Of a stretch of DNA of 64,000 nucleotides, positions 35,195 through 64,000 are shown piece by piece (within the stretch, counting starts at the first letter, position 1; every line of letters begins with the position of its first letter). Source of the DNA: Raillietiella orientalis (taxonomy: Eukaryota); contig JAYWIR010000113.1 of the NCBI GenBank assembly GCA_036172245.1, forward strand, positions 1 to 64,000. Reading direction: 5' to 3'. The position numbers were made by a program, and so were the translations under genes. The notes beneath the pieces were generated by a model. That model was given only the letters and a program-made list of their open reading frames with translations, was not told the origin of the DNA and did no database searches.

Positions 35195-36615
35195 GCAGCG
35201 AAAATACCAGAGGTTTCCGCAACTACTGTTGCGGAAGCCTACGAAAATCGCAATGGCGAATGGAAGGCTGTGGAGAGGAGGAAAGAAAAATCTCCAAAAG
35301 AAGCGTCGCAGCATCTATCCCTGAGCTCTTCAAAGGAAAAAGCAGTCGCGCGAATACGTAAACACGCGCAGCTTGTGCCTCTTTCCAAGAAAAAGCCAGC
35401 AGCCTCAACGCGTGAAGGTCCGCTTAAGTGACCGCCGAGAAGACAATTCCGTGGCAATCGGACGGATGCAAGCGCACGTCGATCGTGCGAGCATCAGACT
35501 CCGTAAAGGAGTCCGATAGCGCCGCTGAAGGACGCATTACTCGCACAAGAGCGAGCGCCCGCAGGGCTGGAGCCCTGAGGCGTGACACACTCGCCGCGAT
35601 ACGGCGAGTGCTCACTCCGCAACCCACAGGTTCTGCACCCGGGGAGGAGCACTCGATTATGTACAGCACAGTTGAGGCTGGTGGCAACGGCGCCCTCCAG
35701 CCCGTCGTGCTGCTTACTGCCCGCTCGCCCGGTGAGGCGAGCACCACGGCCTCGCTTTGCCAGCCGTGATGAGGGCAATCGCCTCTTCTCGTCGTGCTGC
35801 CGTGATGAGGGCAATCGCCTCTTCTCGTCGTGCTGCCGTGACGTCTTGGAACGTCAACGGGCTCCCACAAGAGGAGAAGAGGCGACTAGTGGCTCACGCT
35901 CTGCGAGCTTTCGACTTGACGCTCCTGGAGGAGATTCACAGCATCTTCGAAGAGCAGGCTGCCGAAATCGAACAGCGCGCGGGCGGAACGCTACTTTATA
36001 GGTGCTGCGTTGCACGTACGTGCGTTGTCGCTTTCCTCGTGCGAGGAACTTTGCAGGGAGCGGTGCGCACCGTTCGTTTCGACACGGAAGGCCGAGTGGG
36101 ATAGCTTGTACTCAAGTGGTCCGACTCGATCGACCTTGTCGTAACCAACGTGTACGCCGCGCCGTGCGGTGCTGGGCGATATGCCGAAAGGATTGAGTTC
36201 TTCGGTACCGTTAAAAGCCAGTGCCTTACTCGATCTCACCCTGCTGTGGCCCATTTCATTGCGCGGGCTTTAACGTCCTCCTGCTTTCCGAGAATATCTC
36301 CCACAAAAGGGAAAAGTTGCTAGCGTAAGGGATGTGCGCGTCCGTGCACGCGCGCAACTTCTTTGCTAGCGACCCTGTTATGGCAGCCACGCTGGACCAC
36401 GTACACCTTGATGAACACTTGCTCTCTCGACTGGGTCGGAGAGGACCCGTGCCGTCCGTACATTCAGACCACGACAGGCTCGAGTTCGAGTTGCTCCCGC
36501 CAGGCAGGGTGCCTCCAAACTGTTTTTGGAGGATGCTGGAAGACTAGCTAAGCCAGCCGGAGGCAACTGAGCATCTTTGCTAGTACCTTCTCGGATTTGC
36601 CATAAGAGAGCTCGA
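35195..36615 (+). mobile_element. Family epsilon: ORF1 C-terminus and endonuclease, cut at GFAIREL
   Basis: LQPVVLL ORF1 tail, TGATG junction 35767-35771, SWNVNG, SDH. Confidence 0.85.
35763..35834 (+). repeat. Exact 36-bp tandem duplication at the ORF1/ORF2 junction
   Basis: gccgtgatgagggcaatcgcctcttctcgtcgtgct present twice. Confidence 0.95.
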
Positions 36616-39600
36616 TTTTCACCCGGTTGCGGCGGGACGTTTATTCTTTGGAATAAAACAAACGTTGGTGGCTCACCAGGTGGTCCGGCCACGCACTGAT
36701 ATACAAAATTTAGCCTGGCGGTTCACCGGTTCGTATTCCGACACGGTCCTTCACGACAGCAGAGGGGCCAAGGACAAAACAAAAAATAAAACAAAAAAAA
36801 GAAATATATAAAATCAAGATCTGGGAGGCACGGGAAGGGAGCACATTCTGCTGTTGGGCCGTTACATGCTTTGCAGGATGCCGGCAAGCAGTTTTTGCAT
36901 GTTTGAATCCAGGGGGGTCCATCCTGTCGCCGTCCGCATAAATTGGGCTGCACACTCGAGGGCACCCTTATCGCGAGGTCCTCTTGTTGCTTTGCTCCAT
37001 GCAGCGACGATCCCGCGAAAGCAGCTCAGAGATCGTAACGAGGCCGAGGGCCGAAGGGAGTTGCAAACGAAGAGGGATGTAATTGCGTCTCCGGGGTTGC
37101 CACAGGGGTTACCGATTGCCCTGGCGAAACGGTTCCAAAGGTGCCAAAGAGCCACACAATCCGAAAGGAGGTGAGTGAGGGACTGCCGTTCTCCATACCT
37201 CGCACAATTAAGGCTCACCGCTCCCCAAATCCAATGGTGTCGGCGGACGTTGCATGGGAGTCCCCAATACAGCAACAATAGCGCCGACTCCTGCCATTTT
37301 AAGGAAAGGGTGGAGGTGTTCATCAGCACCGGGGGTCACTTTAATTGTTCTCGCGGAACATTTAGCAGCTCGCCTCAGCGCAAAAGTTTAATGAGGGTGG
37401 TAGTCCGGGCCGCGGTATCGCAGAGAATTCCCGTTTTTTATTACCCGATCTTTTTCTCCGTACCCGAGATTTTGACGTAAACATCCCATTTCGCAGCGGT
37501 GTTACCGTTTAAATGTTCCGCGAGCGGAAACAGCATTGCAGCGAGGGGAGTTTTTCTTGCCCACGCTCGTTTTTGGGGGTTCTCCAGGACCTCCTGGAGC
37601 GTCAGGCGGTCATTATGGGTGAAGAATTGTTTCTGCCCTTCTTGAGTGCGTTGCTGGTTGCTCTTTGCCCACGTCTGAACCGTTTCCTGCAGCCATGCAG
37701 GTCCGTTAACGGGCAACAGCAGAGCCATCCTGCGTTCTTCCTCGTCAGGTCAGCCACTCTCCGTAGCTGCAACCCGCAGTGACCGACTTGGCGGCGCCGA
37801 CGGAGCGCAAGGAAGGATGACAGTCCCACCTTGCCTGTAGCCTGCTCGACGAGAAGACGTGCGGGCTCGCACCAACTGCCACTCCAATATTTCGCCACTA
37901 GGGAGAGTAACCGAAACTGGAGCTGGAGGTTCAGTTGCTCTAGCGTCAGGAGGCCGAGACCGCCGTCTTGACGCGGAGCGCTCAAGTCCTCAAGCCGGAC
38001 TGGTTCCCTCCCATTACCCCACAGGGCAATCCTTAGGAGATCCTTCGTCCGCTTTTTAGTGTTTGTGGTGGGGGGAATAACAAAAAGCAGGGAACGGAGG
38101 AGGGGCGCCGCGAATCCGTTCCACACCGCGGCCCGTCCCGGCACGAGAAACCTGCGGACTTGGAACGGGCCGATCTCCGTCTCTACTTTTTGAAGGCAGC
38201 TGGACCACACATCCCAAGGGAGATATTGACCCTTCGGCAAACCGAGGTACTTGAAGTATTGTACCGTGGGGACCCCCAAACGGACCCAGTTTGGCTGCCC
38301 TGCCAACGCCGAACCGAATGGCATGACGGACGACTTCGCCCTGTTCACCACAAGCCCGGGTCCCCGACTTAGCAGGTCGAAGAACTCCTCGACCACCGAT
38401 GCCGGGGTGGACATAGGGAGCATCAGAAGTAGGTCGTCCGCATATGCTGACAGCGCGGGCGTACCGGGATAGTCGCGCGGCAGGTGTGCTAGAGTTTCCC
38501 TCTACGCTCTTAGTACCAACTCAAAGTAGGTGCTAAAGAGCAAGGGACTGAGGCTGTCGTCCTGCGGTATGCACCGCTACACCGGCACGCCGTACGCCAT
38601 TTGACCTCTGAAAGAGATATTGATGAACGCGCTGCGCCAGCAAGAGCGCAGGTAGATCAGTAAGGAGGGAGGGAAGCCCATGCGTCCCAGGAGCTCCAAC
38701 AGGAGATCCTCGTCCACGCAGTGAAACGCCTTATGCAGATCGACTGCAATCGCTAGGGTTCCCTTCCCCTCCTGGAAGTCCTGTCCCTGCCCGGCTGACG
38801 CTCCCAAAGCGGGGCTGCCAACCGTTCCGTCTTTCATTTCTTGCCTACACTGCACATGAAACCATGTGCTCGCGAAGAAGAGGTCGGCATCCATACTTCG
38901 CCCGGGAACAGCGTAATTTTGCTCCGGTCTAATTATGGATTTGGTCACCTGCCCCAAACGCGAAGCTTACAGTCCGCCGATCAGCTTCGCGTCCGTATTC
39001 ACAATTGTGATGGGACGCCAGTTGCTGAGTTTCCTGAAGTGGAATCCTTATGAAAGGATTCTCACTCTGGCTGAACGAAAAGATGCGGGTACATCGCCTT
39101 TATCTCGGATCAGCCTTGTCAACTCAAGCACCAGGGGTGCCAACTCTGCCGCGATGCATTCAAAAAACTCCGCAGGCAGGCCGTCCTCCCCTGGTGCTTT
39201 CCGCCTCTTGAGACTTTTGATACCGGCGAGAATTTCGCCGGTGGTAAAAGACTCGTCGAGGCTTTCCTTCTCCTCCTCCCCTATTGCCGGGCACCGTCCG
39301 GAAGCAAGGCCCGAAAGGCATCTTGGTTCGGGAGCGCCCTGGCGCAAAGAAAGGAATAATAACGCCGCACGAGGTGCCGTATTCTAGCCGGTGCCGAGGG
39401 CTCCCGGCCCTGTTCGTTCAGCAGGCTGGCGGACCCGGATTGACAGGCTTGAAGTTCGACCCCGGCTCGGTACTCTGCCAGGCGACGGACTTCAGGTGTC
39501 CTCGCGTAACGACAAGCATACAAGTACGCTCTTTCGTTACGGACGTCTTTCCCAAATCCCCAAGGCAGGAGGTGCAAGGGGAACTTCTCGCAAATCTCGC

Positions 39601-39646
39601 TGACCGAGACCTTAAAAAGGTCCCAATCAGCGAGATTTCGGAGCGT
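36616..39646 (-). mobile_element. Family beta element, 3' part (linker, RT, zf, 3' UTR)
   Basis: KAPGEDG, DLHKAF, YADD, zf ORF 36862-37329; ends aataaacgtcccgccgcaaccgggtgaaaa. Confidence 0.88.
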
Positions 39647-42242
39647 CGAGCCGACATGTCTTTTAACTGCTCCCGAATTCCGATTTCCGGTGATGTTTTG
39701 TGTGGTATGGGTGGAGGATTAGGCAGCAATGCCTGATTCCACCACCGGTGAGATTCTGGGGGCGATGACCCCATTGTCCCCGGAGGAGATGGAAGTGGGG
39801 GATCTTGCACCCAGTGATGCGCCCCCGTCCCCAGCCAGGGCTTGGAACGCCGTGGCTGCCGCGCTCACGCCGGCGGCTGTGGCGGAGATGCGGGCCTACC
39901 TGGAAGAGGGGTACAACCCACCCCTTCTATACAAGGTAGGCGGTTTATATTCTCCCGAGAATGCGCGCGCCTTCTCGCGGGAGATGCGCGCTATCGACGT
40001 AAGAAAGGGGTATCTTCTGGCAATGTCCGTCAGAAGCTGGGGACAATTCGCAGATGTAATCTGCAAGGAGGCAACTCTGGCGCAGAGGCATCTGCGAACC
40101 CCCGAAATGATGGGCAGCCGGAGGCTTCTTCCAATAACGGAACAGAGGTCGGTGATCATTCACTTGACCGGTATCACGTTAAGGATGACCAAGGAGGCCG
40201 TCCGGAACGAAATAAATAAATTTTGCGATCGTCAACGCACTGTGAGGGAAGCCAAACTTGTTTGCTCAATGCGACGGGTTTCTTGGCGGCCTGGGTGCAG
40301 CGCGAGTGGCGGTTCGCGAGGGATGTGAGTTTCCCCACAAACTCACCGTCAACGGTGAATCCGTTGACGTGTGGTACGTGGGGAAATCCAAGTTTTGCGG
40401 CTGCTGCAGCAGCTTTGGTCACCTATAAATGAGCTGTCCGAGCGTGCAGTGCGAGCAATGAAACAAGAGGGGCACACCCGTCTGGTGTGCCCCCAAAACA
40501 CAGTCCGCGTCGTGTCCGCGAAAAACACGAGAAAGCGCGAGGCAAAAAAGAGAAAGAAGCTGGCAGCTCGTGCTGCTGCTAAGGAGGTCACCTCCGCCAC
40601 CAAGGCGAAGGCCAGCCCCGAGACCCCGGCGAAAAACGCCGAAGAGGTCGAGGGCGAGGGTCAAGAGCCAGGGTGGCAGAAGGTGGACCCCAAGAAAAAC
40701 TCCCAGAAGAAGGGTAACAACGTGGAAGAACGGAGCAAAATTTATCCGCGCCGCGAAAAAATTAAAAGCTGCTGCGTCTTCGTAGAGCGGATTCATGCCA
40801 TCGACGAATGCGGCGCTAAAGAACTCGCTGCTGCCTCTGCTGAACCCTCTGTTGACAAAGTCAACAAGGAGGAAAGCGAGGCGGCGGTGTCCGTCATCGA
40901 GCCCACGCTCGATCACGTCGTCTTCAAGCGCGCCGCGGAGGAGCTGGCTGCCTCGTTGTAGCCTGCCGCCCATAAGGCTGGCAAGAAGGCCGTCAGGCGT
41001 TCAGTTTCCCCTCAGCAGTCGGCCACTTCCGACCCCTAGGTGAAGGCCGGAAACACAGCATCCATCTCCGCGGCACCCCGCAAAAACGCCGGACGAAAGT
41101 CTACAATGCCCCAGGAGATCGTCTTCCCCGACGAAGGGGAACAGATGGCTTCCGGTAGCGAGGGTGCCATGAGCGTGGGAAACTCCCGGGACCCGTCGCC
41201 CAAGAAAATTCCACGCTCGGACACGGATGGAATGGAGGGGATGGAGGCCGAACAGGTACTAAATGTGCCTGCAGAGGCCTCCGTCCTCGTTCTGATGGTC
41301 CTCGTACCGATGGACCTTACCCCACCTACGCCTCGACGCCACTTTCCCAGCCATAATTATGGGAATCGCCTCTCGCCGTCGTCTGCTGATCGCCTGTTAG
41401 AACGTCAACGGGCTAAGCGACGACGGCAATAGGCGTAACGTGGCTGCCACCCTGGCATCCTTTGACCCGGTGCAGCTGCAGGAGATCCACGTGAACGCCG
41501 CAGATCAAGCCCGGGAGATCGAACGGATCTAGGGTGTGCGGCTGTTGTGGCATTGCGGCACCGCGAAGTCAAGCGGTGTCGCCTTTCTGCTTCGGCCAGC
41601 CATCGAGACCGCTATAAAGGACGTTCGGTTCGATGACGCCGGTCGCGTCGGTCAAATGACTCTCAGCTGGTCCGACTATATCGTCCTGGTCGTCACCAAC
41701 CTATACGCTCCTAGCGCAAACTCTGCGTTGAGGGCGAAGGCAAGAAGGGAGTTCTAACTTGACCTGAGGCGCGATTGGCTGACCGATGCAGAAGTTCGAA
41801 AAGCGCACCTGATCGCAGGTAATTTCAACCTGCGCCTGCTTTCAGGTGTGCCAAATACACTGAACGACCGCGTCAACGAGTTGTGCGCAGAAATGAACAC
41901 GCGCAACTTGTTGGCCGGGGATACGGCCATGGAAAGCAGCATCGATTACGTGTACCTTGATCAGCGCCTATGCCTCGGGTGGACGGGCGCGGCAAGGTAC
42001 CATCCGAGCTGTCGGACCATGGTCAGATCATGTTCGAGATGCGTCCGCGCGACAAGAACGCCCCCTTGTCAGCGTGGCGTCTGCCAGGGGACTGCATGAA
42101 GTTTCCCGACGCGGCGGAAAACCTCCACGCGTTTATTCGGAGCGTCAGCGTGCAGACACTTCAAAACTGGCAGCGCTTGAAGCGGTCGTTTCAGGAGTTC
42201 TACGACCAGTTCCCTCTGCATCGCCTACCTGCTGGATTTGAA
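39647..42242 (+). mobile_element. Element 5' part (probably family beta): ORF1 and endonuclease, cut at LPAGF
   Basis: ORF1 from 39729 (SPEEMEV, YNPPLLYKV); ORF2 ATG 41359; GNFN, SDH. Confidence 0.85.
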
Positions 42243-45200
42243 GCTGCCACCCGGGTACGCCCGGTGCGTTTATTTTCAGAAACTCCTTAAAACGTGGTAC
42301 AAGGCCCCACTAACGGCCACACAACACAGGACCTGTCGGAGCGCCGGGGCCAGCCCGGCGTGACGCTCCTCCACAGTGGAAGGGGATGGGGATGAAAACA
42401 AAAACAAAAATAAGGATGAGAAAAAAAAACCAAAAGAGTTTGTGGGGAGGACAAGGGATCACATTCCAATGGGAGGAGAGCCCATCCTTCGCAAGATGCT
42501 CTCCAGGTCCCTCTTCATGCTTCGCAGATGAGGCCATGTCGCAGCTTTCCGCATGAAGCAGACCGTATACGGGATGACATCCCTCGCGTTGGCATCCACT
42601 CCTTCGTCGCGAATGTCGCTCCAGGCCGCCACGATGCCCCGGATGCAGCGGCGGTCTCCGAGGGGTGCGGCGGGCTGGAGAGCGTTCCGCACGAAGAGGG
42701 ACTGAAGAACGTCTCTGTGCGCGGCGCTTATTGGGAGGACGAGGGTCGTCATGAGCCGTTCCCACAGGGTTCGGAGGGCAGCACAGTCAACAAGTAGGTG
42801 TGGGAGCGATTCCCGCTCTCCACACCTTGCACACTAAAGCCTTACACTTTTCCGCGTCCAGTGGAAGCGGCGCACGTTGCAGGGTACACCCCAGTGCAAC
42901 AGCAGCAGCGCCGACAGTTGCCACATCAGGGGGAGAAGCCTGGATCCGATTAATATTGGGAGCCACTTCAGGTTAACCGTCGGGATGTCGAGCAGCTCGC
43001 CCCATCAACGAAGTCCGAGCGGGAGAACACTCGAAGTCGTGGCGTCTACCAGTTCTCCCATGGTCCAACCGCTCCTCTTCTTTTCCTTGCCTGCGATTCG
43101 GCAGGAGACTTGCCACTTTGTCTTGCAACCGCTGATTAGTGCCCTTCGTAGGAAGAGCAGGGTCGAAGCTAGAGGGGTAGTCTCCGCCCACGTGCTCCTG
43201 GAGGGACACTCTAGAGTAGTCCGCAATGTGCAGCAGGCGTTGGGGCGGAATCGTGGGCGGTTCCAGTCCGGGGAAGTCTGGAGGTTCGGCTTGGCCCACG
43301 TCGCAACGGCTTTTTCCATTTAAGCGGAGGAGTTGGCAAGGCTGCATACCGTCGAGCCGTTGTCTCTCACCATTGCTTCCATGCGCCCAAGGAAAAGGCC
43401 GCATCTTCTGAGCTTCCTGCCAGAGCACAGATGGTACGACGCGAGTCCTTGCGTCCTGGACACACGGCTGGCGAAGATGCGGGCCGGAACGCACCAAGGG
43501 GTGCTCTATGACTTTGCTGCGATAGGGAGGGTGCGCCATCACAGCTGTATGTCCAGGCGCTCCAGCGTCATGAGGCCGAGACCGCCGTCCCGACGAGGAT
43601 CACATAAGTCATCTTGAGGCACAGGTGGCCCTTTTCGCAGCCCAAGTGTCCATTCCCAACGCAGCTGGCGGCTTCAAAGTGGGATTGCCAATCTATCCGT
43701 TAGTGTTGTTTAGACAGCGCTTCACATGGAAGCATTTGCTCGCGAAGAACAAGTTGAAATCCATACTTCGCACGGGAACAGCGTATGTGTGGTCCGGGCT
43801 AATTATGGAGTCTGCCACCTGTCATAGTCGCAAAGCCCACAGTCCAGCGATCAGCGTGGCGTTCGTATTTACAATTGTGATCGGACGCCAGTTGCCTAGG
43901 AATCTTAGGTCTCCTCCCTTCGGGAGGAGCCTCACACGGGCTGACCGAAACGAGGCGGGTAGGTTGCCTTCGTCTCGGATCAGCCCGGCAAACTGACGCA
44001 CCAGAGGGGCAAGCTCTGTCGCGAAGCTTCGAAAAAATTCTTCAGGCAGGCCGTCCTCCCCTGGCGCCTTACGACTCTTGAGCCTTTTAATACCGGCGAG
44101 AATTTCCATGGTAGAAAAAGGCTCGTCGAGGCTGATCCTCTCCTCCTCCTTTATTGCCCTGGCTCCGTCCGGAAGCAGGCGCCGCGATGCGTCCCGCTTT
44201 GGGGTTGCCCTAACGTAGTGGGAGGAATAATAATGCCGCACGAGGTGCCTGATCGCGGGTGGCGCCGTTCGCTTTCAGCCCTGGTCGTCCAGCAAGCTGG
44301 CCGACCCGGATTTTCAGGCTTGGCGCTCGGCCCCGGCTCGATATTCTGCCGGGCGACGGACATTGGGGGTCCTCTCGTAACGGAGGGCCTGTAAATAGGC
44401 CATATGATTCCGAGCTTCTTCCCAAAATTCGGGTGGTAGGCGGTGCAGGGGGAACTCCTCGCAGAACTCACGGACCGAGGCCTTGAAGAGGTCCCAATCT
44501 GTGTGACTGCGGAGGGAGACGCCTCTCAGGAATTCGCGAAGGTGCTTCTTCGCACCTGAGAGCCGCGTCCAGTCCCCAGGCAGCCGCCACGCCGTGGACG
44601 GGGGTCCTTTGTGGCTTCGGCAATCCTCGGCGATTATCCTGGAATGGTCCGACAGCGTCGACGCAACTTTCCCCCGTTTGCGGACCCGTGAGCACAGGTC
44701 GGAACCAGGAAGAAGTGGTCGATGCTGCGGTACATTCTTCCGCGTCCGCCAACAAGTTGCGCTTGCGCATGGCAGCGCACATCTCCTTGACCGTGCGTTC
44801 CTGTGCTTCGGGCTCACCTGGCAGCAGACGTAGATTAAAGTCTCCAGCTATCAGGTGTGCCTTCCGCGTATTCGTGTCGGCCAGCAAATCGCTCTCCAGG
44901 GTCTCCAGCAACCTGTTACGGTCGCTGTATCCCCCTTTACCGCTTAAGGCATACACGTTCTTGACGATCATTTCGATCGAGTCGGACCAGCTGAGATTCA
45001 GCTGACCGACCCAACCGGCGTCATCAAAGCGTACGCCCTTCAAGGCAGCGTCGATAGCCGGCTTCACGAAAAACGCGACCCCACAGGTGTTGCGAACGCC
45101 GCATCGCCAATACAGTCGACCTCCCGCGATCGTTTCGATCCCCTGGACGTCTGCCGAGGTGATCACGTGGATCTCCTGCAGCAGGGCCAGGTCGAACTCA

Positions 45201-47274
45201 CGCAGGGTGTCGGCCGTATCTCGTTTGTTGCCGTCGTCGCGCAGCCCGTTGACGTTGCAACTGGCCACGCGGATTCGAAGGCGACAGGCGAGCCCAGGTG
45301 CTATTCCTGAGAAATGGGCTCTGCAACGTCCGCCACCTGTTGAGGCGGGACGTTAGGTGGAGTAGGAGGGACAGGTGCCTCGAGCACCTGGTCCCCCTCC
45401 TCCATCGGTGAAGGCGCGTCGGGCGGGTCACCCTCAGGTGGGGTCTCGCCTTCCTGTTGACCCTCCTCCATAGGGGTGGGCTGTGCAGGATCCGCGACGG
45501 CAAGGGGGACTTGTTTCCCTTGCTATCCCTCCTCTATGGAGGTGGCCGGTTCGACGGCTTTTGAGCGTGGGAATCCCGGAGGGAGAACTCCCGGATTCCC
45601 ACGCTGCAGCTTCCTTCCGGCTTCTCCTCCTCGCTGGTGGAGAAAAGGCTCCTCCTGGGTTTCTGGGACTTGCTCCCCGACTTCCCCGTTGGTGCCTCCG
45701 AGGAAAAGGATGCACTTCCGGCCCCCAGGTCGCCCTTACCTGCGGGGGCCTTCTTCGTCGGTGCCGGCCTGAGTACGCCCTTGCGCGACAGAGTTTCGCG
45801 TTCGGAGAGCGTTGTAGCGATCTCCTCCGCCGCTTTTCCCAACGCGGCGTCTTCGCCAGCGGCGACCGTTGCCGCGGGCTGCTCCACGACCTGATCGAGC
45901 GCGGCGTCATCACTGACGGACAACGTATTGCGGGCTCCTCCGCTACTTTATCGAGCGCGGCGTCCTGGCTGTCGGCGCAAGAGTCTCGCGTCTCACCCTC
46001 TAAACGTAGATTGCGCTCGTCTACGCGAGTATCCAGCGCGTCCGCATCAGCTGTTCTGTGAACATTGCCCCGGGCGGCCTCAGCAAGAACTGCTAAGCGT
46101 TTTAATGCCACCGAGCATTCGCGGAGTTGTTTTTTTGAAAGCGGCGCGGCTTTTTTCTTTTTGCCTGCAGTTTTCTTCTCCGACTTTTCTTCAGCCATCA
46201 TTTTGATTTTTTCTTTTCTGGCCTGAACGAGCTGCCAACCCTCCTCCAATCCCGCGTCCACGGGAGCTCTTTGCTCCTACGCCTGTGCGGGAGGAAGGGA
46301 GGCTGGCAGTTGGGAACGGCCATTTTCGCGAACTGGTCTTTCTACCAGCTTTCCACGTTTTCACTGCGCCTTTTTAGCGGCAGTGGGCACCGGGCTGGGG
46401 CTTTTGGGGCACAAGGACCGAACGTGACACTTTTCTCCGCATAGGTGGCACACAATGTTCGGGCACCTTTTTCGTAGATGACCAACTGCATTGCAGTAGC
46501 CTCAAAATTATGGTTGCCCCACGCACCAGAGATCCAACGCTTCTTGGTAGACCTCCAGCTTGTGGGGAAGCGCACCACTCTCTTTTCCGGTGACTCGTGC
46601 CGCAGCTTGACCCCCGAAAAGGCTATTGTATCCTTGGAAAATCGTGGGCTTTGGCCAAAACGCGTGCACTTCTGCGTGCTTCCGCCACTGATCACCAACC
46701 GTTGACCTAATCATGCGACTGGAGATCCCAGTGAGATGGAACACTACCGAGCTGTCCATCGTCATCGGCAAGATCTTCCGACCATCAACGATCAGCGGGC
46801 CGGTCATCATGCGTTGGGCCAAGGTGATATCTTTGCATAGCACCTCGACTCGCTGCCCGACGCTGAGGACGAAAAGGCCGTCAAGATCTTGTAAGAAGGT
46901 ATTGGCGTTCTGCAGCGCCTTCGTGAAGGCGCGTGAAGTTCGCCCATCGAAAAGGTTGCCTATCTTATAGACTAGCGAGGGTTTATACCTTGCTTTCTTG
47001 AAGGCTCCCATCTCGGTAATGGCTTCAACCCTAGGCGAGGCCACCATGGCGCTCCATGACCTCAGCTTCGCCGAAGATGATTCCGGGGCCGATTCACCTG
47101 ATCCAGTGGGCTGTGGGGACAAACAAGCATCCCCTACGCCTACTTCCATCGCGGTGTCCTCTGGCAACTCGGCCATAGGACGCCGACGGTGTGAACGCAC
47201 AAACCACTCAAGGAAAAACCACTGCCCTTGCCGCGCAGCCGGAGCGCAGGAAAAGCACGTACTCTCTCCACAAA
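42243..47274 (-). mobile_element. Family gamma element with internal deletion of the RT core near 43620
   Basis: ORF1 46508-47293; EN 44468-45268; NWRPI; the KAFD-YADD segment is missing; 3' hairpin at 42247-42274. Confidence 0.9.
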
Positions 47275-52550: not shown

Positions 52551-55500
52551 GAGTGAGGACGTGTTTTTCAACGCTCTCGTCTCAGTGCTTTCATCCGCTT
52601 CATCTTGGCGTCGTACATTTTGACGACGATGTCGACCCAACTTGAAGCTACTGAAGTTGGAGGAAGAGCATCCGGATCTGCAATCGCGGAACCTACGGCC
52701 GCCTCCACTTCGACTTTCTCGCCAATAGAGAGGAGTTTTGCTGACGTTGCTGCCACAGCAGCCGTCAAAGGGAAACCACTCGACAAGTCGGAGTTGCGGG
52801 CATACGTAGCCCAAGGCTATAGACCTGCTCTCCGATATAAGGTGAGTGGCTTTCTTTCTGCGCGCGACGGGAATCAGTTCAACGATGAACTGACCCGTGT
52901 TGGCGTGCGGGAGGAGGACCTTCTCGCCATTATGCCCGTAAAAGACATGGGCTATTTCAAGGTACGTTGCAAAGACGCTGCACTTGTGAAACGCTTGCTG
53001 CGCACCCCGTTGTCGATCCGTGGCCAGAAGGTCTTCCCGGCCGCCATGGACGACTCATTTGTGGCGGAGATTTTCGACATCGAGTCGGAAATCTCCGATA
53101 TTGATATTCGGAACGCGTTGGCGAAATTCGCCACGGTCCATGCGCTGTGGAGGATGCGTAGCAACCTCAAGGACTTCCCGTCCATACATAGCGGAGTCGC
53201 TGGAGTCCGGCTTACAATGCCGGACCGCCGTCTGCTGCCCACGAAACTACAGGTGAAAGACACGGCCGTTCATCTGTGGTTCGTGGGCAAAGTGAGAACG
53301 TGCGAGCAATGCGGGAAGGAGGGGCATTGTTTGGATAAATGCCCCTCTGGAAAATGCCGTTTTTGCAAACTATCCGGGAACCAATTAAAAAATTGCCCGG
53401 ATCTTTTGCGAAAAAAGGCAGCCGCGGAGCTCCATTTTAAAAAACAAAGCGCGGATAAATAGAAAAAATCTGCGAAAAACCTGGAGTCCCCACGGCAGAA
53501 ATTCCGAAAAATCGCGAGGCGGAATGTCCCCCAAAGCAGCAGGAAACCTCGCACGCGAAGCCCTACGCGCCCCCTCTCGCGGCAGGGGAGCCGCAAAAGA
53601 AAGGGTGCGGGGAATCCGGGGCAATGGTAAGTCCCCCTAGGCGCAATAGCTGTCCTTCCCAAGCTCGTTTGGCTGTTTCGGAGTTCGAGCAACCGGCGGG
53701 GACGTCAATGGACAACGGCGGTAAGGACACTTCCAGTACCGTCAGATCCATTCCTTCAACTCCTGCAGTGGCTGAGAAGCCCAAATCGGGTAAGAAGGGT
53801 TGTGCCGTTTCGACTTCGAAAGTCAGCAAAAAAAAATCCGCGTCGCGATCCAACACCGCGAAAGCGGAGAAAAATCTCACGCCGTCGCAATCGGAGAGCA
53901 AGCTCTCGACTGGCGCGGATGCCATGCCAACGAAGGGATTGAAAGCCCTTCCGAAGGCAGCTTCCATGACGAGTGTGTCGAAGCCATCCAAAGTGCTCCC
54001 GTCCAAAGACGTGGATGGCTTCAAAGATGGCAATGGAGCACAATCTCCATTTACGGCGCCACGCGAATTGAGGAACCGTAATGAAGTAAAGAAGACTTCA
54101 GCAAAGGTCCCTCGTGCAACTGCGCGTGAGCACGCTGAAAACGCGCGCGCCGGGAAAGCAGCCGTCACCAAAAGCGATGCTCTGGTGACGGAAAACGAAA
54201 ACAGGACAGCTGTCAATCCAGCAGAACCTGTCACTGCTTCGCGGAAGGCCGAAACCCGATCGAACATGCGCCGGTCGGACTCCGAAATGGATGCCGTTCC
54301 GATCACCGAGACGAGGACAACTCGCTCGAAAGCGTGTGCGCGCCGATCAAAAGTAGGCAGCCAGGCAACTGTAGCCGCGAAGCCACGCGAAGTCTCCACG
54401 AAACCCGACGGGGATAAGCCTGGCGTGGAGGCATTACATGCATGCAGCACGATAGAGGAAGGTGGCGACCGTCCCCTCCAGCCAGTCGTGCTGCTCGCCG
54501 TCTGCTCGCCGGATAAAGCGAGCAAAAAGCCGCCACCTTCCCAGCAGTAATGCGGGGAATCGCGTCTTCTCGTCGTCTGTCCGTAACGTGTTGGAACGTG
54601 AACGGACTACAGAACGACGAGAAGAGGCGATTAGTAGCCAACGCCCTGCGCCCCTTCGACCTCGCGCTCCTGCAGGAGATTCACGTAATCTCCGTCGAGC
54701 AGGCAGCCGAAATCGAGGAGCGCGCAGGCGGAACGCTACATTGGCGGTGCGGCGGCGCACACACGTGCGGCGTCGCGTTTCTCGTAATAGGAAAAATGGC
54801 GGAAGCGCTGCGTAGTGTTCGTTTCGATGACGACGAACGGATAGGCCAGCTTGTCATCAAGTGGTCCGAGTCCATCGATCTCGTCGTTAAGAACGTCTAC
54901 GCGCCGAGTGGCTCTCGCTACCTCGAAGAAAGAGTAGCTTTCTTTGGTGAGGTGCAGAGCCACTGTCTCAACAACTCCGGTTTCCAAGTGGCCCACCTCG
55001 TCGCTGGGGACTTCAACGTCCGCCTGCTCTCCGACGATTGGAGCCGCCCGAGGGAGCGCGCCCTGCCCATCGAGATGTGCGCGTCCGTGCACGCCGCCAA
55101 CTTGATGGTCAGCGAACCTGGAATGGAAAGATCGCTCGATCAAGTTTTCCTCGATGAAAACCTGCATTCGCGTGTGGGTAGGAGAGGAAGATTGTTGACT
55201 AGGCTTTCTGACCACCACAGGTTGGAGTTTGAGATCCTTCCGCCAGGCAGGATACCTCCGTTGCAAAACTGCTGGATGCAGGCGGATTGGATTAGCCAAC
55301 CGGAGGATGCGGAGCATCTACGTGGATACCTCCGAGGCTTTGCCATTCAAGAACTTGCGAGCGCGATCTTGATATCAAAAGATGTGTCTGCGAGTTCTGC
55401 TGCCAATTCCCCTTGCACCGGCTTCCACGCGGTTTCGGAGAGGGCGTGGCCAACAGTAGAGACTTTCTGCAGGCCCGCACGTTTCCGAGACGCGCGGATG

Positions 55501-56269
55501 TCGGGCGTCTTGCGGAGTACAAGGATAGGGCCGATCGCCAGGTCTGGCAGTCCGGAGCAGCATGCCTGTTGGACGACAAGGGCCAGGAATGTTCGGCCCC
55601 AGCCGAAGTACGCCGCATTGTGAGACGCTACTACTCCTGGCTGTAAGCGGAATCCCCGACGGAGGATATTCTCTCTTAGATACTCCTGTCTCAGGATGCT
55701 CGTGTTGTCGGAGAGGAGGAACGCGAACGTCTCAACGAGCCCTTCACGGCGGAGGAATTTTCGTCCGCCATCGCTGGGCTAAAGACACAAAAGGCGCCAG
55801 GCGAGGATGGGCTCCCAGCAAAGTTTTATCAGTGCTTTGCAGTGAATCACATTCTGTTGATGCTGAGACTCGCGACGCTGATGAGTGAATCCAAGAATAT
55901 CCCGGATTCATTTGGCTCAGCATATGTGCGTCTCCTGCCGAAAGGCAGAGACTTGCGCCAACTTACCAACTGTAGTCCGATACCCTTGGTGAACTCGGAC
56001 AACAAGTTGTTTTCGAAGCTGTGGGTCGCGCGGTTAGGAAGTATCGTGGAATCTGTGGTGAGCCAGGAACAAACCTACGCGGTTCTGGGACGATCCATGG
56101 AAGCTAACATCCTTTTCGCGCGTACATGGATGCAGCTGCAGGAATTCGTGGCACAGCAAAGCCAGGCTGCTGCTAAAGTCACAGCCGCAGGCAAGAAAAA
56201 CAGGCGACGACAACAGGAGGGAAAGCCAGGTGCCTTGGCATTCGCTGTCGATCTCCACAAGGCGTTCGA
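52551..56269 (+). mobile_element. Family epsilon element, 5' part, cut at RT DLHKAFD
   Basis: ggacgtg at 52557; ORF1 52629-54550 with CEQCGKEGHCLDKC; TAATG junction; EN ORF 54550-55623; RT 55842-56269. Confidence 0.9.
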
Positions 56270-59200
56270 TTTTCACCCGGATTTCGCCGGGGCGTTTATT
56301 GTAAAATAAACGTTTACAGATAAGTGCGGTGGTTGGACCATTACTGCAGCCGCGCACGAAGAAACACAAAGCGTGCCGGGTCACCGGTTCGCAGACTGGC
56401 ACGGTCCACCACGGCAGCAGCAGGAAGGTGAAAAACAAAAAACAAAACAAAAAGAAAAGAAAAAACTTTGAGGGTACGGGAAGGGATCACTGTAGCTGGT
56501 GGGGCCGTTGCATCCTTTGCAGGATGCCGGCAAGCCCCTTCTGTATTCCTGGATCCAAGTGGGGCCATCGGGACGCTCTCCTCAGGATCTAAAAGGCTAA
56601 CTGGATGGCACCCAGGTCGTGTGGTCCTCTCGTAGCCTTGCTCCAGGATGCAACGATCCCGCGAAGGCAGCACAGGTCTGCTAACGAGGCCGCTGGCCGG
56701 AGGGCTTCGGCAAAGAAGAGAGCTTGCAGTAAATCCCTTGGTTTGACGCAGGGGATTTCGATGGCCGCGGCAAAGCGCAACCACAGGGGCCTGAGGGCAA
56801 CGCGATCCACTAGCAGGTGGGGGAGGGAATACCCATTCCCTACACCTGACGCAATTAGGGTTCATGGCTCCCCAGGTCCAGTGGTGTCGGCGGTCGTTCC
56901 AGGGGAGTCAACAGTGCTGCAACAGGATTGCCGATTCCTGCCATTTTGAGGGGAGGGTGCAGTTGTTCATGAGCACCGGGGTCCACTTCAGATATTAAAT
57001 GGGAACCTCGAGCGGCGCGCCCCAGCGCAGAGGTCCATTGGGAGGCGTACTCGGGGTCGAAGTGTCTGTTAGCTGGCCCGTCTTCCAGTCTCCTATCTTC
57101 TTTCCCTTTTCGGAGATTGTTACCGTAACCTCAGACTTCGCCGCAACATCGCTGTCCAGATCTTTCATCAGGGAGGGCAGCGCAGCAGCGAGGGGAGTTC
57201 TTCATGCCCACGCTCTCTTTTTTGGATCCTCCAGGATCTCGCGAAGCATGCAACTTCTGTAACCCTCAAACAGGAACCTTCGTTCCTGTTGGGAGCGTTT
57301 TTTGCCGAACTGTCGATACGTTCGAACTTTTTCCTGCAACCAGGCACTACCGTTAAAAGGGAGACAGGTGAGCAATCCTGGGCTTTTCCGGTACAGCGCA
57401 GCCACCCTCCGCAGCTGGAGTCCGCATCGGTTGACGCGGCGACGGAGTGCAAGAAACGACGTCAGTTCCTTCTTGCCTGTGGCTTGCTGGAGAAGGAGAC
57501 GTGCAGGGACGCACCAAGAGGTGCACCACAACTCTGGAACGAGTGCCGACAATCGGAACTGGAGCTGAAGCTCCAGCCGCTCCAGCCGTTCCAGCGTCAG
57601 GAGCCCAAGACCACTGTCCCGACTAGGAGCGTACAAGTCCTTTAAGCGGAATCCGGCATTGCCGTTTCCCCGAAGGGCGATACGGAGGAGGTTTTTGGTT
57701 TGCTTTTTAATTCTTTCTGTGGGGAAGCAAACAAAAAGCAGGGTTCGGAGAAGAAGAGCTGCGAACGCGTTTCAAACCACGTCCCGTTCAGGCAGGAAAA
57801 ACCTGCCTCCTCGGAACGGGCCGATCGACGTCCCTACTTTTTGGAGGCAGCCGGACCACGCTTCTGCAGGGGAGTAGTCCTCCAACGGCACACCAAGGTA
57901 ATTGAAGTACCTCACCTTGAAAATCCCCTAACGGACCCAGTCCTGCTGCCCTTCCCACGCCGCACCAACTGGCATCACGTAAGACTTCGCCCTGTTCACC
58001 GTAAGTCCGGTTTTCTGATGCAGAAAGTCGAAGAACTGCGCGACCGCCGCAGCCGGAGTGGACATAGGGAGCAGCAGCAGAAGGTCGTCCGCGTACGCTG
58101 AAACGGCTGGCGTACCGGCAAAGTCGTGCGGCAGGGGCGCCAGAGTTCTCCTGTACGCTCTCAGTGCCAACTCAAAGTAGGTACTGAAGAGCAAGGGGCT
58201 CAGGCTGTCTCCCTGCCAGATCCCACGCCGCACCGGCACACCGTGCACGGTCTGCCCTCTGAAAGTTACGTTGATGAGCGCGTCGCGCCAGCAGGAGCGC
58301 AGATAGGCCACTAATGAGGCCGGGAAGCCCAAGCGTTCCGGAAGCCCCAGAAGGAGATTCTGGTCGACGCAATCGAATGCTTTCCGCAGTTCAATTGCGA
58401 TTGCAAGGGCTCCCTTCCCCATATGACCATCCGACCCTCTGCCTGCGCACGCACCGGAATTCCAGGTTCGCACCAAACTCCTTTCTTGTTGGAGCTCTAG
58501 CCAGGTGGAAGCGTGGAACAGGTTCGCCTCCATGCTTCGCCCGTGAACAGCATATGTCTGTTACGGGCTGATGAAGATGTTGGCAACCCGTCCCAAGATC
58601 TCTGCCCAATTCTTAGCTAGCAATTTGGCGTCCGCGTTCACTATTCTGATGCGACGTAAGTAGTTCATGCTCCTCAGATCTCCTCCCTTAGGGAGGAGCC
58701 GCACCTTTGCCGAACGAAACGAGGCGGGAACGTGACCTGTTTCGCGTATCAACAAGGTGAGTTGATGTACCAGGTGGATGAGCTCAGCCGCGAAAGTTTG
58801 GTAAAACTCCGCAGGCAGGGCGTCCACATCTGGAGCCTTGCGCCTCTTAAGCTTTTTGATGGCCGAGAGGATCTCGTCCATCGTATAAGTCTCGTCGAGG
58901 GTCTTTCTCTCCTCCTCCACGATCGCTGGAGCGCCTTCAAAGAGCAGGAGACGTGAGACGTTCCTCTGCGGAGGTGCCCTGGCATACAGGGAGGAGTGGA
59001 ATTTCGCAGCAGGCCGCGGATTTGGGCAGGTGCCGAGTGCTCCTGACCCTGATCGTCCAGTAAGCTGGCCGATCCGGACTGCCAGGCTTGCCTCTCGACA
59101 CCCGCTATGTATTCCGCCAGCCTACGGATGTCGGGGGTCCTGGCGTGACGGCGAGCCTGCAGATAGGCTCGTTCGTTACGTACCTTGTCCCCAAATCCCG

Positions 59201-59720
59201 CAGGTAGGTGGTGCAGAAGAAACTGGTCGCAGAACTCCTGGACCGACCGCTTGAAGCGGTCGCAATCCTGGAGTGTCCGCAGCCTGAAGCTCCGTATCAA
59301 CGTACGGAGATGTTCCGCCGCGTCCGGTAGCTTCAGCCAGTCCCCTGGGAGGAGCCACGCTGACAAAAGGGGGCCCCTGTCGCGCGGATGGATCTCGAGG
59401 ACTAGCGGGCGATGGTCGGACAGCTCGCACGGTAACTTGCCGCGCCTGCCCACGCGAGGGAACAGGTGCTCATCAAGAAACACGTGGTCAATGCTGTCTT
59501 CCATCCCCGGTGCACTGACTAACAAATTACAGGTGTGCACCTCTATGCACACCTCGTTGACCAGGTCACGCTCGGGATTCTGCCCATCTGGTTTCAGGCG
59601 AACGTTGAAATCGCCTGCAACCAGATGGGCATTCCGCACGTCTGCTTCGGTCAGCCAGTCTCGCCGGAGGGCAAGGAAAAACTCTTTCTTCGCCCTCCTG
59701 GTCATCAGGTCCGCGCCGCT
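56270..59720 (-). mobile_element. Family alpha element, 3' part
   Basis: ORFs 58749-59705 and 57928-58533 (YADD); ends aataaacgccccggcgaaatccgggtgaaaa. Confidence 0.9.
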
Positions 59721-59752
59721 TGTTCACACCCGGATGTGCCGGGGCATTTATT
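59721..59752 (-). terminator. AATAAA plus terminal GC hairpin at the element 3' end
   Basis: Same layout at 944-974, 5022-5052, 27687-27717, 36616-36645, 42243-42274, 47285-47316 and 56270-56300. Confidence 0.6.
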
Positions 59753-59979
59753 TCATAGAAATAAACTAACAGAAAAATTGTCGCGTGGCGAACCCGAAGG
59801 TTCACCACTCCATAACAGCTTGCTGGTTACCGGCTCCGTGCCGGAGAGGTCCTTCCGATGCGCGGGGATGGGAAATAAAGAAAAACCAAAAGAAACAAAA
59901 AGTTCAAATGTGGGGGGGGAACAAATGTTGTAGGGATGGGAGGGCGGGGAAGGGATCACGGTGCGCGTGGAGAGGTCCT

Positions 59980-62900
59980 CTAGATCCTATTCAGGATCCG
60001 CACAAGCTGAGTCCTTTCAGCGCCCAAGTGGCGCCACTTGCAGACACTTCGCGCGAAAACGCGAGTCCAGTGTAAGGCGTTGCCGGTTGGCTGACGCCGT
60101 CTTCTGGTGGCGTTCCAAGCCGCCACTATTCCTCTGATGCAGCAGAGGACTGCTACACTAGCGGGCGGGGAGAAGGCGTCACTACAGAAGAGGCGCCTGA
60201 AAACGTCCTTTGGGCCGAATCCGCGCAAGTCCAGGATCGCCGCGAGACGATCCCATAAAGGGCGGATGGCAGTGCACTCGATGAGAAGGTGGGGGAAGGT
60301 CTCTTTTTCCCCGCACCGGTCACAATAAGGATCCACAGCCCCCCGGGTTGTGTGATGAAGGCGTGCTTTGAATGGAAGTCCCCAGAGGACCACAAGCAAC
60401 GCCACATCCTGCCATTTCAGGGGGAGGGATGCACTGTTCCAGGACGCTGGGGGCCCCTTCATCTCCTCCGGAGATAGTCCGAGTAGCTCGCCCCAGCGTC
60501 GAATTCCGTTGGGCGGGACACTCGGCGTCGCAGCGTCAGCTAGCTGCCGAGATGTCCACGCCTTTATCGATTGTGTCCTGCCGCCTATAGTGCAGGACAC
60601 GGTCCATTTCCCCTGCTCGCTACTGTCCCTGGCATTCACAAGGAAGGGCAGCACTGGGGCGAGGGGGGTTATCAAGGCCCACAGAAGCTTGTCGTGGGAC
60701 TGCACGATCTCCTGCAGCGTCCAGCGGGCGTGCCTTTTCATACAAGTGTTCCTTGTGCCCGCCGGAACGTGGATCTTAACCAGGTGGAGACTGACTCGTG
60801 CAACCAGGCGGAGTAGTTCCCTGGGAGGCAGGAGATCCAGGCGTTCTCCCGAACCGCAACAAAGATGCGTCGCAGCATAGAGCCACAGTATGGTCTTCTG
60901 CAGACGCGCGCAGACAGAAACGACAAAAGTCCGCCGATTCCGCAGGCTTGTTGGGCCAGGAGGCGTGCTGGAACGCACCAAGGCGTGTCCAACAATTCTG
61001 CCGCAAGGGCGAGAGTCCTGAATCGAAGTTGTATTTCGATGCGCTCCAGCGTAAGTAAGCCAAGTCCACCGTCCTTACGTGGAGCGCACAAGTCTTTGAG
61101 CCTCACACGGGACCTCCCTTTGCCCCAAAGGACTGTCCTCAGGAGGCCCGCTGCTCGTTTTCGAATAAAATAAGGGGCGGGGCAAACAAAAAGTAGGGGG
61201 CGAAGGAGGGGAGCCGCAAACGCGTTCCACACCGCGGCCCGTTCCTGCAAGTAGAACTTGCCTTCTTGGAACGGACCGATCGCCAACGCTGCCTTTTGGA
61301 GACGGTCGGACCAGGCTTCTGCTGCGCAGAAGTCCCCCAACGGTACACCGAGGTACTTGAAGCACCTGCCCGTGGGGATCCCCACGCGGATCCAGTCCGA
61401 CCGTCCAGCCCACGCCGAACCGACGAAGACCATGGACGACTTCGCCCTGTTCACCTCCAGGCCCGTCCCGCGGCGCAGCAACTCGAAGAAGTCCTCGAGT
61501 GCACTCGCCGGGGTGGACCCGTGAAGCAGCAGCAGAAGATCGTCTGCATAGGCCGACACGGCAGGCGTGCCGGCACACGAGCTCGGCAGGGTTGCCAGAG
61601 TTACCCTGTATGCCCTCAGCACCAACTCGAAGTAGATGCTGAAGAGCAAGGGGCTCAGGCTGTCACCCTGCCGGATGCCGCGGCGCACTGGCACACCGTA
61701 CACGTGCCGGCCGCTAAAACCAATATTTATTGACGCGTTGCGCCAGCAGCAGCGCAGGTAGGACTGGAGCACGGCAGGGAAACCCATGCGTTCCAGGAGC
61801 TCCAGAAGGAGATCCTGGTCGACGCAGTCGAATGCTTTGTGCAAATCGACCGCGACGGCAAAGGCTCCCGCCGAGTCCATCCCACCCTCTGCCCGATCTT
61901 CTTGGTCAGAGGGGGCGCGAGGCTCCCTTGACCGTCCTGTGCAACGCGTTGTCGCAACTGCCACCATGAGCTGGCGAGGAGCAGGTTGGCCTCCATGGTT
62001 CGTCCGGGAACAGCATAGGTCTGCTCGGGACTCACCACGGAAGCGGCCACCAGCCCCAAACGCTCAGCCCACAACTTGGCATACAACTTTGCGTCCGCAT
62101 TCACTACTGTGATGGGACGCCAGTTGCCAATGTTGCGTAAGTCTCCTGACTTCGGCAGGAGACGTACTTTAGCTGACCGGAACGAGGCGGGAACTTCGCC
62201 GTGTTCGCGAATCAGCGCACTTAACCTGAGCACCAGGGGGGCCAGCTCTGGCGCGAAGCGATGGTAAAACTCCGCGGGCAGGCCGTCCTCCCCTGGTGCC
62301 TTCCTTCTCTTTAGCCTGTTGATGGCGGAGATGATCTCCGCCATCGTGAACGGTTCCGCCAATCTGGAACGGTCCTCCTCCTTGAGCGCGGGAGCGCCAT
62401 CCGGCAGCAGGCGCTGCGCGAAATGGCGCTCAGGTGTCAGTGGCGCGTACAAGGAGGAATAAAACTCCCGCACGATGCGGCTTACCTGGGCTGGGCTGGA
62501 GCGTTCTTGGCCCTGATGATCCAGCAGGCAGGCCGAGCCGGACTGCCAGGCCTGCCTCTCCGCCTCAGCCTTGAATTCAGCCAGGCGACGGACGTCGGGA
62601 CGCCGGGAATAACGGCGCGCCTGGAGGTACGCCCGCTCGTTCCTGACACCCTCACCGAAGCCCGGCGGAAGACGTTCCAGCGGAAACTGGTCGCAAAACT
62701 CACGGACTGAGCACTTCATTTCGTCCCAGTCCGCGAGCGTCTGAAGCTGGAATCCTCGCAGGAAACAGCGTAGATGTTCCGCCGCTCCTGCGAGGCGCAA
62801 CCAATCCCCTGGCAGGCGCCATGTTTTCAGGGGAGGGCCCTTATTGCGCGGATGTAACTCGAGCACGAGCCGTGGATGGTCGGACAGCTCTGCCGGGAGC

Positions 62901-63535
62901 GTTCCTCGAGTTCCCACCCGCGTGCACAGGTGGTTGTCGAGGAACATGTGGTCGATGTTCCGATCTCTCCCGGCATCGCCGGCCAACAAGTTGCGCGCAT
63001 GCATGGCTGCGCACAACTCGTTGAACAGCTGGGCTCGTCCGCTGGGCGCACCTGCCAGCAGGCGGAGATTGAAATCGCCCGCAATGAGGTGCGCCCTTCG
63101 CACGCCTGCTTCGGCCAACCAGTCTCGCCGCAAGGTTTCGAAGAACGCAGTGCGTTCCTCGGCCCTGTGGCTGCTCACCGGAGCGTACAGGGTCGTGACT
63201 ACGAGGTCGATCGAGTCGGACCACTTGAACACAAGCTGCCCAACTCGACCATCCCCGTCGAACCGTGCACTGCGCAGTGAGTTGTCGACGGTTGGCTTTA
63301 GCAGAAAGGCCACTCCGCAGGAGTTGTCCGTTCCGTTCCTCCACAGTAGCCGCCCTCCCGCGATTCTTTCGATTTCCTGGACATCTCCCGGTCGGAGAAC
63401 GTGCGTCTCTTGCAGGAGCACCAGGTCGAAGTCTCGCAGTATGGCGGCTACATCTCGCCTCTTTCCGCCGTCGCGCAACCCGTTGACATTCCAACAGGTG
63501 ATGCGCAAGCGGCGGCAGAAGGCGAGCCCACGCAC
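59980..63535 (-). pseudogene. ORF2 EN-RT-zf with two frameshifts and no internal stops seen
   Basis: ORFs 61727-63535, 60738-61967 and 59980-60981 tile the protein: CWNVNG, DLHKAFD, RQGDSLSP, YADD, CDRCGEKETFPHLLIEC. Confidence 0.9.
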
Positions 63536-64000
63536 TGATGCGTTTATTGTGGGGTGGAGGCGGCCTCCTCCCTTGCGGGAGGCGGCTTGTTGGCGGCCGT
63601 GACGACGGTCGGCTGCTCACACGGCAGCACGTCGTCCACAGCGACTTCCATGGGGCTGGCTTCCGAGACACGGATCGGAGAGGGGTCGCGTGGCGCGACG
63701 CACATTGCCTCCTCCTCCGTGCCCGAGGACATGGCCTCCTCCACCTGCGGAGGGGCGACCCGTCTCGGGCAACCGGTCTTCTTGCCAGCCTTCCTCTTCG
63801 GCACGGCTGCGGAAGTAGAACACCCGGCTTCGGTTTCGGACTCGGAATTTTCCGGGCCCTTCACCGTTGCCGGTCGTCTCAAGGCCTTCTTCTCGGCCTT
63901 GGCAGGCTGCCGTAACATGGCTGCCAGCTCTTCCGCGGCCTGCGCGACGGTCGCGTCCGTTATGCGCGCCGCCTCCTCGCTTTCCGCACCGACGCTTTGC

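Follow-up and report, generated by a model that had tools for sequence, protein, structure and literature searches.

How does a tract of DNA come to consist of retrotransposon pieces only, and in what order did these pieces arrive? The question is raised by the first 64,000 nucleotides of contig JAYWIR010000113.1 (forward strand; GenBank assembly GCA_036172245.1, Raillietiella orientalis), which we refer to as the window. Its right-hand part, 35195-64000, is a stack of nine pieces of L1-like long interspersed nuclear elements (LINEs) with an endonuclease, a reverse transcriptase and a zinc-binding tail. DNA and protein-level mapping both indicate that LINE pieces tile this stack entirely, making it a LINE-only tract. 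As judged from the sequence, the best reading is successive nesting, in which the youngest element lies on the right and the stack represents the left flank of an L1-like nest. We regard this as rather probable.

The class of the elements follows from their long open frames, which contain an apurinic-type endonuclease, a reverse transcriptase and a zinc-binding C-terminal domain. This is the make-up of the second open reading frame (ORF2) of L1-type LINEs. In the rightmost element, the matches to Exo_endo_phos (2.2e-15) and RVT_1 (6.6e-18) exceed the curated cut-offs, and the match to zf-RVT (7.2e-5, 23.8 bits) lies under its cut-off of 27.5. Word-index protein searches, a HMMER scan, and cluster and Atlas look-ups returned no named close relative of the ORF2 proteins; the nearest database proteins, which carry no family name and of which just two are close, show 65-67% identity and 80% over 93 residues, and all remaining ones at most 37%. 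The GC content of the window is 48-63%, and a comparison of the window with itself revealed dozens of mutually related stretches of 65-90% identity on both strands. Using the plus-strand copy 52550-56259 and the minus-strand copy 59750-64000 as references, we placed each piece on one common scale, on which a full-length element measures approximately 5.79 kb. Protein-level mapping and sensitive DNA mapping of the 5' regions agree with the resulting picture.

The leftmost piece, S1 (35195/35479-36615, plus strand), is epsilon-like and covers approximately 1430/1711 to 2800 of the scale, where it is cut at a spot that we call site A. Its last four bases (TCGA) could belong either to the host or to the tail of the next piece. 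Two beta pieces follow, namely S2 (36612-39633, minus), which extends from a 3' terminus ending in GGGTGAAAATCGA to site A at approximately 2797, and S3 (39634-42239, plus), which extends from the 5' terminus to site B at 2884 and ends in ...GGATTT. The gamma copy S4 (42240-47271, minus; 3' hairpin at 42248-42274) is complete with both termini and is adjoined by S3 and S5. The delta piece S5 (47277-50228, minus; hairpin at 47291-47317) runs from the 3' terminus to site B at 2878, and the gamma piece S6 (50229-52549, plus) from the 5' terminus to the GDFN codons at 2469. Next to it lies the epsilon piece S7 (52550-56270, plus), reaching from the 5' terminus to the KAFD codons at 3722 (site C). 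The alpha piece S8 (56271-59719, minus; hairpin at 56274-56300) covers its 3' terminus to scale 2352, and the eta piece S9 (59720-64000, minus) its 3' terminus to scale 1536, where the window edge cuts it. A preliminary description of this DNA had listed the same series of fragments, and their order and orientation were confirmed by nucleotide, protein and 5'-region mapping for the nine pieces. Moreover, each of the eight consecutive junctions includes a true terminus of one partner. The accompanying statement, that every element has its true end on the left and an internal cut on the right, holds for seven pieces; it fails for S1, which has no 5' terminus, and for the complete S4.

The termini are well defined. 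All five minus-strand pieces of the stack start at a 3' terminus that consists of AATAAA, a GC hairpin and a short tail, and the hairpin folds at a common place in each of them. A strict pattern of this terminus has six matches in the window, compared with 0.02 expected, and these include three of the five stack ends; the termini of S2 and S9 are variants. Among the 13 termini listed, 11 are of the readable hairpin type, and there the hairpin is followed by 2-16 bases with no more than four consecutive A, i.e. without poly(A). The 5' termini align across the subfamilies, and S3, S6 and S7 start there. Every visible 5' side in the stack (S3, S4, S6 and S7) reaches this common terminus and is of full length. 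Elsewhere in the window there is one clearly 5'-truncated copy, at 19756-20206. A search with the bare 12-base 5' motif was without power (66 matches in comparison to 55.5 expected).

Which evidence argues for insertion of one element into another? We found that the junctions recur at a few exact spots. At site A, S1 ends in ...GAGCTCG against the 3' end of S2, and S2 starts at the homologous TCGCTGA against the 5' end of S3. At site B, S3 ends in ...GGATTT against the 3' ends of S4 and S5, its paralogue at 27722 likewise ends in ...GGATTT, and S5 starts at the homologous GGGATG against the 5' end of S6. At the KAFD codons, S7 and a piece from the left end of the window (F3) end against alpha 3' ends, and a small fragment (H8) has its start there, next to the 5' terminus of F3. 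All three sites display both junctions of an antisense insertion, that is, the 5' part of the host against the 3' end of the insert and the 5' end of the insert against the 3' part of the host. At all three, the downstream host part begins 4-15 nt ahead of the end of the upstream part, which is expected from target duplication. Independent copies have used site A twice, site B twice and the KAFD codons three times, and insertion is in this sense site-specific. Among 10 independent antisense breaks, five pairs lie within 10 nt of each other, compared with a mean of 0.16-0.47 under a uniform distribution (P from 1e-5 to 4e-4, depending on the allowed range, with the paralogous break at 27722 counted once).

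Within the window, the GDFN spot has been hit once, in S6, which an epsilon 5' terminus cuts there; a second use is seen in a contig from another locus, in which a 3' end reading ...GGGTGATAA is joined inside the GDFN codons of an eta-like copy, at the place where S6 is cut. This read evidence, and that given below, comes from a single, independent set of short DNA reads, with listed contigs of 229-444 bases (eight pieces listed, 70 further ones unlisted).

Tails and targets also correspond to each other. The three alpha/beta 3' junctions all read GGGTGAAAATCGA, in which TCGA or ATCGA is equally readable as host; the host sequence at these junctions is the TTCGAT of the KAFD codons twice and GAGCTCG once. 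All four gamma/delta tails carry AAATCC, and in two of them AAATCC equals the host GGATTT. The overlap between tail and target suggests, as far as sequence can tell, that the end of the RNA pairs with the target at the nick. The junctions at the 5' ends agree by subfamily as well, with the beta piece S3 at the alpha/beta site A and the gamma piece S6 at the gamma site B. Near 3070 we considered a further shared spot, the fourth, and dropped it: the piece at 8779 starts at approximately 3090-3130, and the alignment had partly included the 5' end of a different fragment. Separately, a 107-base gap in one left-flank piece (F2) relative to F3, at 1384, ends approximately 8 bases from the epsilon 5' cut of the beta piece 27722-28453 (scale approximately 2150), and this coincidence may mark a further landing spot.

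If the elements were inserted one into the other, decay should tell something about their age. Counted without a reference, stops and frame changes per kb together amount to a minimum of 4.9 for S1, 3.3 for S2, 3.3 for S3, 3.0 for S5, 2.8 for S6, 1.1 for S7, 2.2 for S8 and 0.75 for S9, with approximately 5-7 in shuffled sequence. The path behind this count places single disruptions unreliably and only the totals were used; one candidate for a shared stop taken from it proved to be out of frame. A homology-based count, which favours eta since eta is the reference, gave 6.2, 4.7, 4.4, 4.9, 4.0, 1.8, 3.4 and 0.46 per kb for the same pieces. Decay falls with position in both counts (reference-free, rho -0.97, exact one-sided P 0.0002; homology-based, rho -0.905, P 0.002). 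The age order is resolved as three tiers only, with S1-S6 old, S7 and S8 intermediate and S9 young.

The earlier view that eta is the least decayed element is well founded, with two frame changes and no stop in 3.6 kb and with open frames of 629, 441 and 364 residues. Contigs aligned at 97% identity or more cover 59953-63853 of eta and, among the matches listed, differ by 1-6 bases each (approximately 98-99.7% identity). Eta is the only well-covered part of 44001-64000 in the read set, the rest being almost bare. In a contig from another locus, the match begins at 59721 after 255 unrelated bases, which fixes the terminus of eta and demonstrates a second genomic context for it. At two places, after 60775 and after 61910, the contigs have one base more than eta; both lie in homopolymers within the two frame-change zones of eta, which indicates that related eta copies read through where the present copy or its assembly does not. 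At 60775 and 61910 there are either true single-base losses in eta or homopolymer assembly errors. Among the matches listed no contig bridges a junction of the stack; most of the stack is nearly uncovered, which makes this uninformative either way.

From the observed map, termini, recurrent sites and decay gradient we infer the order of events, the pairing of the RNA tail and the existence of far halves beyond the window. By target-primed reverse transcription, each element would have entered an older relative and thereby split its host, of which only the left part is visible. Landing would not be random. Elements of the alpha/beta type, with their 3' end GGGTGAAAATCGA, would join in antisense at spots containing TCGA, namely the KAFD codons of the reverse transcriptase and approximately 2800; gamma/delta elements, with a 3' end of ...AAATCC, would join at GGATTT, at approximately 2880; and epsilon would join in sense within the GDFN codons of the endonuclease. 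A spot presumably stays usable after a hit, so that a second element may land beside the first, as S4 beside S5. Eta at the right edge would then be the innermost and youngest visible element. The halves predicted beyond 64000 are, in order, the 5' part of eta, alpha 1-2352 (minus), epsilon from the KAFD codons (plus), gamma from ATTTCAAT (plus), delta 1-2878 (minus), beta from 2884 (plus), beta 1-2797 (minus) and epsilon from approximately 2800 (plus). Block copying and deletions would have modified the pile later.

Within the window, closed cases are given by S4, with GGATTT on either flank, and probably by a divergent LINE between two parts of one epsilon element (see below). In S4 both termini are present, the flanking GGATTT represents a 6-base target duplication, and 5 extra bases are found at the 5' junction. 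Being complete at both ends, S4 is a side insertion at the S3/S5 junction and not an open layer.

Several observations weigh against successive nesting. The visible sequence stops at 64000, and the right-hand partners expected for the eight open layers would lie outside the window. S1 lacks a true left end. Neighbouring layers are inseparable by reference-free decay (S7 and S8, P 0.37; S8 and S9, P 0.12), and at the KAFD codons the hosts look less decayed than their inserts (S7 1.1 and S8 2.2 per kb; F3 1.2 and F2 2.4 per kb), a gap that shrinks when the comparison is limited to the shared coding region. Alpha S8 does not look younger than the epsilon S7 around it. Both strands of S7 together contain TCGAT 12 times, which means that tail pairing alone cannot account for the choice of the KAFD codons. 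The folding energies of the 3' hairpins in the five stack ends are not better than those of shuffled sequence (z from +0.24 to -1.29), and it is therefore the position of the hairpin, not its stability, that counts as evidence. In the left part of the window, an internal-to-internal junction at 8558/8559 joins H8 to a 220-base 5'-terminal fragment of a gamma-like element (to 8778), and an inverted paralogue with an event-specific junction indicates that some adjacency was copied and not inserted.

The claim that each copy was inserted into the previous one is consequently borne out in part. It is supported indirectly by the anatomy of the junctions, the recurrent exact sites, the falling decay and the eta contigs, and it is weakened in that decay does not separate neighbouring layers and alpha does not look younger than epsilon. 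As to the figure of at least eight layers, the depth is uncertain at 6 to 9 layers and not a firm eight. Six would be the number if one inverted insertion each accounts for the beta pair and for the delta/gamma pair, and nine or more if the pieces at 27722-29812 belong to the stack.

Such inverted insertions are known from L1 elements as twin priming, in which an inverted 5' segment adjoins a 3' segment and both derive from one RNA. Under this explanation, S2 plus S3 and S5 plus S6 would each be one element with a 5' inversion, approximately six events would be enough, and there would be no separate 5' halves of the minus-strand beta and delta pieces. The layout fits: an inverted 5' segment that reaches the true 5' terminus directly abuts a 3' segment, F3/H8 has the same layout with an overlap of just 15 nt, and decay is equal between partners (S2 3.28 and S3 3.28 per kb; S5 2.98 and S6 2.79 per kb). 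What twin priming does not predict is that the 3' segments start within a few bases of the spots cut by incoming 3' ends at site A, site B and the KAFD codons. Moreover, the same type of junction joins unlike subfamilies, as beta with epsilon at 28453/28455, and S5 is beta-like in the reverse transcriptase part (76%), whereas S6 is gamma. We therefore consider it unlikely that twin priming produced these pairs. A homology-driven variant, in which S3 past site A would be the rest of S1, was ruled out, as that stretch is alpha/beta-like and not epsilon-like.

Alternatively, the adjacency of the pieces could result mainly from rearrangement, i.e. unequal exchange, inverted block duplication and deletion, with far halves that are gone or never lay beyond 64000. 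One argument is the 6.4-kb inverted paralogue of 41515-47311 at 22077-28453 (plus), in which a delta tail stub, one complete gamma element and a beta piece that breaks off at site B are combined. Both loci have in common the junctions, the delta-tail stub, the 5-base filler at the gamma 5' junction and one in-frame stop. The common filler and stop indicate that both loci go back to one insertion event and that the block was copied. Identity within the pair is a mosaic, with 84-96% in ORF2 and the beta piece and approximately 68% in gamma ORF1, which suggests that the ORF1 module was exchanged after the block had been copied. Further support comes from an internal deletion of approximately 750 nt in S4, measured against 25621-26369, and from the internal-to-internal junction at 8558/8559. 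There is also a precedent, as the available part of one report describes arrays of the LINE ZeppL in Chlamydomonas that grow and shrink, a change of size that its authors credit to unequal exchange over transposition (PMC9977147). Rearrangement thus has real support as a contributor. As the main source of the stack it seems improbable to us, since breakage and joining does not give eight consecutive terminus-bearing junctions, recurrent sites or an overlap of tail and target, nor a decay that falls monotonically in tiers.

A misjoining of related repeats during assembly is very improbable, for although the region is purely repeats of 65-90% identity and none of the contigs of 229-444 bases among the matches listed bridges a stack junction, neighbours at 65-90% identity are too diverged to confuse an assembler, the junctions lie at meaningful termini with recurrent target sites, and a contig from another locus confirms the eta terminus at 59720/59721.

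Returning to successive nesting, we asked where its outermost layer begins. No 5' terminus of S1 was found at 35195; epsilon-like sequence starts at 35479 (scale 1711), and 35195-35479 is without any match. Further left, at 28455-29812 (plus), lies an epsilon-like 5' terminus with part of ORF1, which matches epsilon ORF1 residues 25-292 at 48% and whose 5' end aligns with the others. Between this piece (E28) and S1 we found a divergent, apparently full-length LINE at 29813-35194 (minus), designated theta, with matches to endonuclease, reverse transcriptase and zinc knuckle; its ends are inferred. Theta shares 25-33% of residues with eta, carries a CCHC zinc knuckle in its ORF1 and is the sole such copy in the window. 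The tail of E28 and the head of S1 together measure 1078 nt, compared with 1112 nt for the corresponding linker of the intact epsilon S7, and direct similarity in this low-complexity linker is weak. E28 and S1 are quite probably one epsilon element split by theta, so that the outermost epsilon would begin near 28455 and resume at 35195. If the two are one element, theta probably represents a closed insertion. Within S1, 35763-35841 is a perfect tandem duplication of 36 bp (2.2 copies, 100% match), a recent small event in an otherwise old and decayed piece.

At the left end of the window, a mirror-image nest had been proposed to run leftward from 8557. This applies to 3-8475, where F1 (3-971, plus), F2 (972-5054, plus) and F3 (5055-8475, minus) each have a true terminus at their right side and are broken off at the left. 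The tail of F2 joins F3 at the KAFD codons, and the 5' terminus of F3 joins H8 (8476-8558, plus), an 83-base reverse transcriptase fragment that begins at KAFD and shares 87% identity with 9376-9457. The presumed insert F2 looks more decayed than its presumed host F3. The proposed starting point at 8557 does not hold, being only the end of H8; past H8 the mirror arrangement is disturbed, and the next junction, at 8558/8559, is no insertion junction and is not explained by simple insertion.

Nested LINE clusters are known from green algae, and the portions of the literature available to us allow a comparison with three systems. In Coccomyxa C-169, the element Zepp forms 26 nested clusters of 1.5-42 kb, one per chromosome, that are thought to be centromeric (PMC3446292). 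Its nesting targets existing copies, and 5' truncation leaves arrays of mostly 3' ends (PMC8226300). In Chlamydomonas, centromeres are composed of the related ZeppL-1_cRei (PMC8226300; PMC9940879), and CENH3 binds ZeppL regions (bioRxiv 10.1101/2025.03.28.645958). Zepp and L1-1_CR are both listed as (A)n-ended (PMC3472496, Table 1), and 5 of 15 green-algal L1 families are without a 3' repeat (PMC3472496). In the same source, a conserved 3' stem-loop marks the stringent L1 lineages, such as LINE1-1_ZM of maize.

The stack described here resembles Zepp of Coccomyxa subellipsoidea C-169 and Chlorella in that copies nest in their own kind and form LINE-only, GC-rich tracts. Unlike Zepp, which is poly(A)-ended and occurs in mostly 5'-truncated arrays, the present elements are without poly(A), four of four 5' sides in the stack are of full length, and the pile mixes several diverged subfamilies that each land at a spot and on a strand of their own. 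ZeppL-1_cRei (L1-1_CR) of Chlamydomonas reinhardtii likewise forms nested clusters of L1-type LINEs with few other sequences; it is, however, one poly(A) family of approximately 8.3 kb, whereas we found at least six subfamilies of approximately 5.8 kb without poly(A). With stringent L1 elements such as LINE1-1_ZM the present ones have in common a conserved 3'-terminal hairpin module, which the available portion of PMC3472496 reads as a handle for the own reverse transcriptase. The sequence is different, the module here follows AATAAA, and a short, subfamily-specific tail overlaps the target. L1 twin priming is comparable in that an inverted 5' segment abuts a 3' segment at S2/S3, S5/S6 and F3/H8, but here the breakpoints fall on spots that recur as targets, and in some pairs the two segments belong to different subfamilies. 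In sum, the elements are Zepp-like in their nesting and differ in the absence of poly(A), the full-length 5' ends, the at least six subfamilies and the exact, subfamily-specific spots. We did not meet landing spots defined at the base level for Zepp-like elements in the literature searched, with the original Zepp papers outside its reach.

In several green algae, nested LINE clusters have been proposed or shown to make up the centromere DNA, and how such clusters grow is poorly described. The base-level junctions suggest that growth follows rules: elements would land at few exact positions within genes of their own kind, each subfamily on one strand, a spot already hit could be used again, and the copies would be of full length, with structured ends that lack a tail. 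Should these rules apply genome-wide, insertion order could serve as a clock for such regions, and the landing rules are open to a retrotransposition assay. One may speculate, tentatively, that the subfamilies form a self-sustaining community, in which each recognises one short coding motif of its relatives on a fixed strand, the elements offer one another their only safe landing sites, and LINE-only blocks, maybe centromeres, build up. The chain of insertions would then be rule-based and not a matter of chance, and it would depend partly on the pairing of a tail-less RNA end marked by a hairpin.

The window yielded no tRNA genes and no Rfam matches, and none of the 46 open frames scanned in it matched a cellular gene family. 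A stretch of approximately 4 kb at about 14900-19150 is lower in GC (0.48-0.53), bears no similarity to the LINE proteins and has open frames that match no Pfam family. To its right, at 19241-19755, lies a minus-strand piece of approximately 500 bases that is 91% identical to 55728-56166 of S7, the closest epsilon pair in the window. It was considered together with 20207-21483 as the two halves of one host, which was ruled out, as their 42-nt overlap is only approximately 60% alike and their identities to S7 are 91% and 70%, respectively. Approximately 70 bases of a 3' terminus directly adjoin the piece at 19241-19755, as after an interior deletion.

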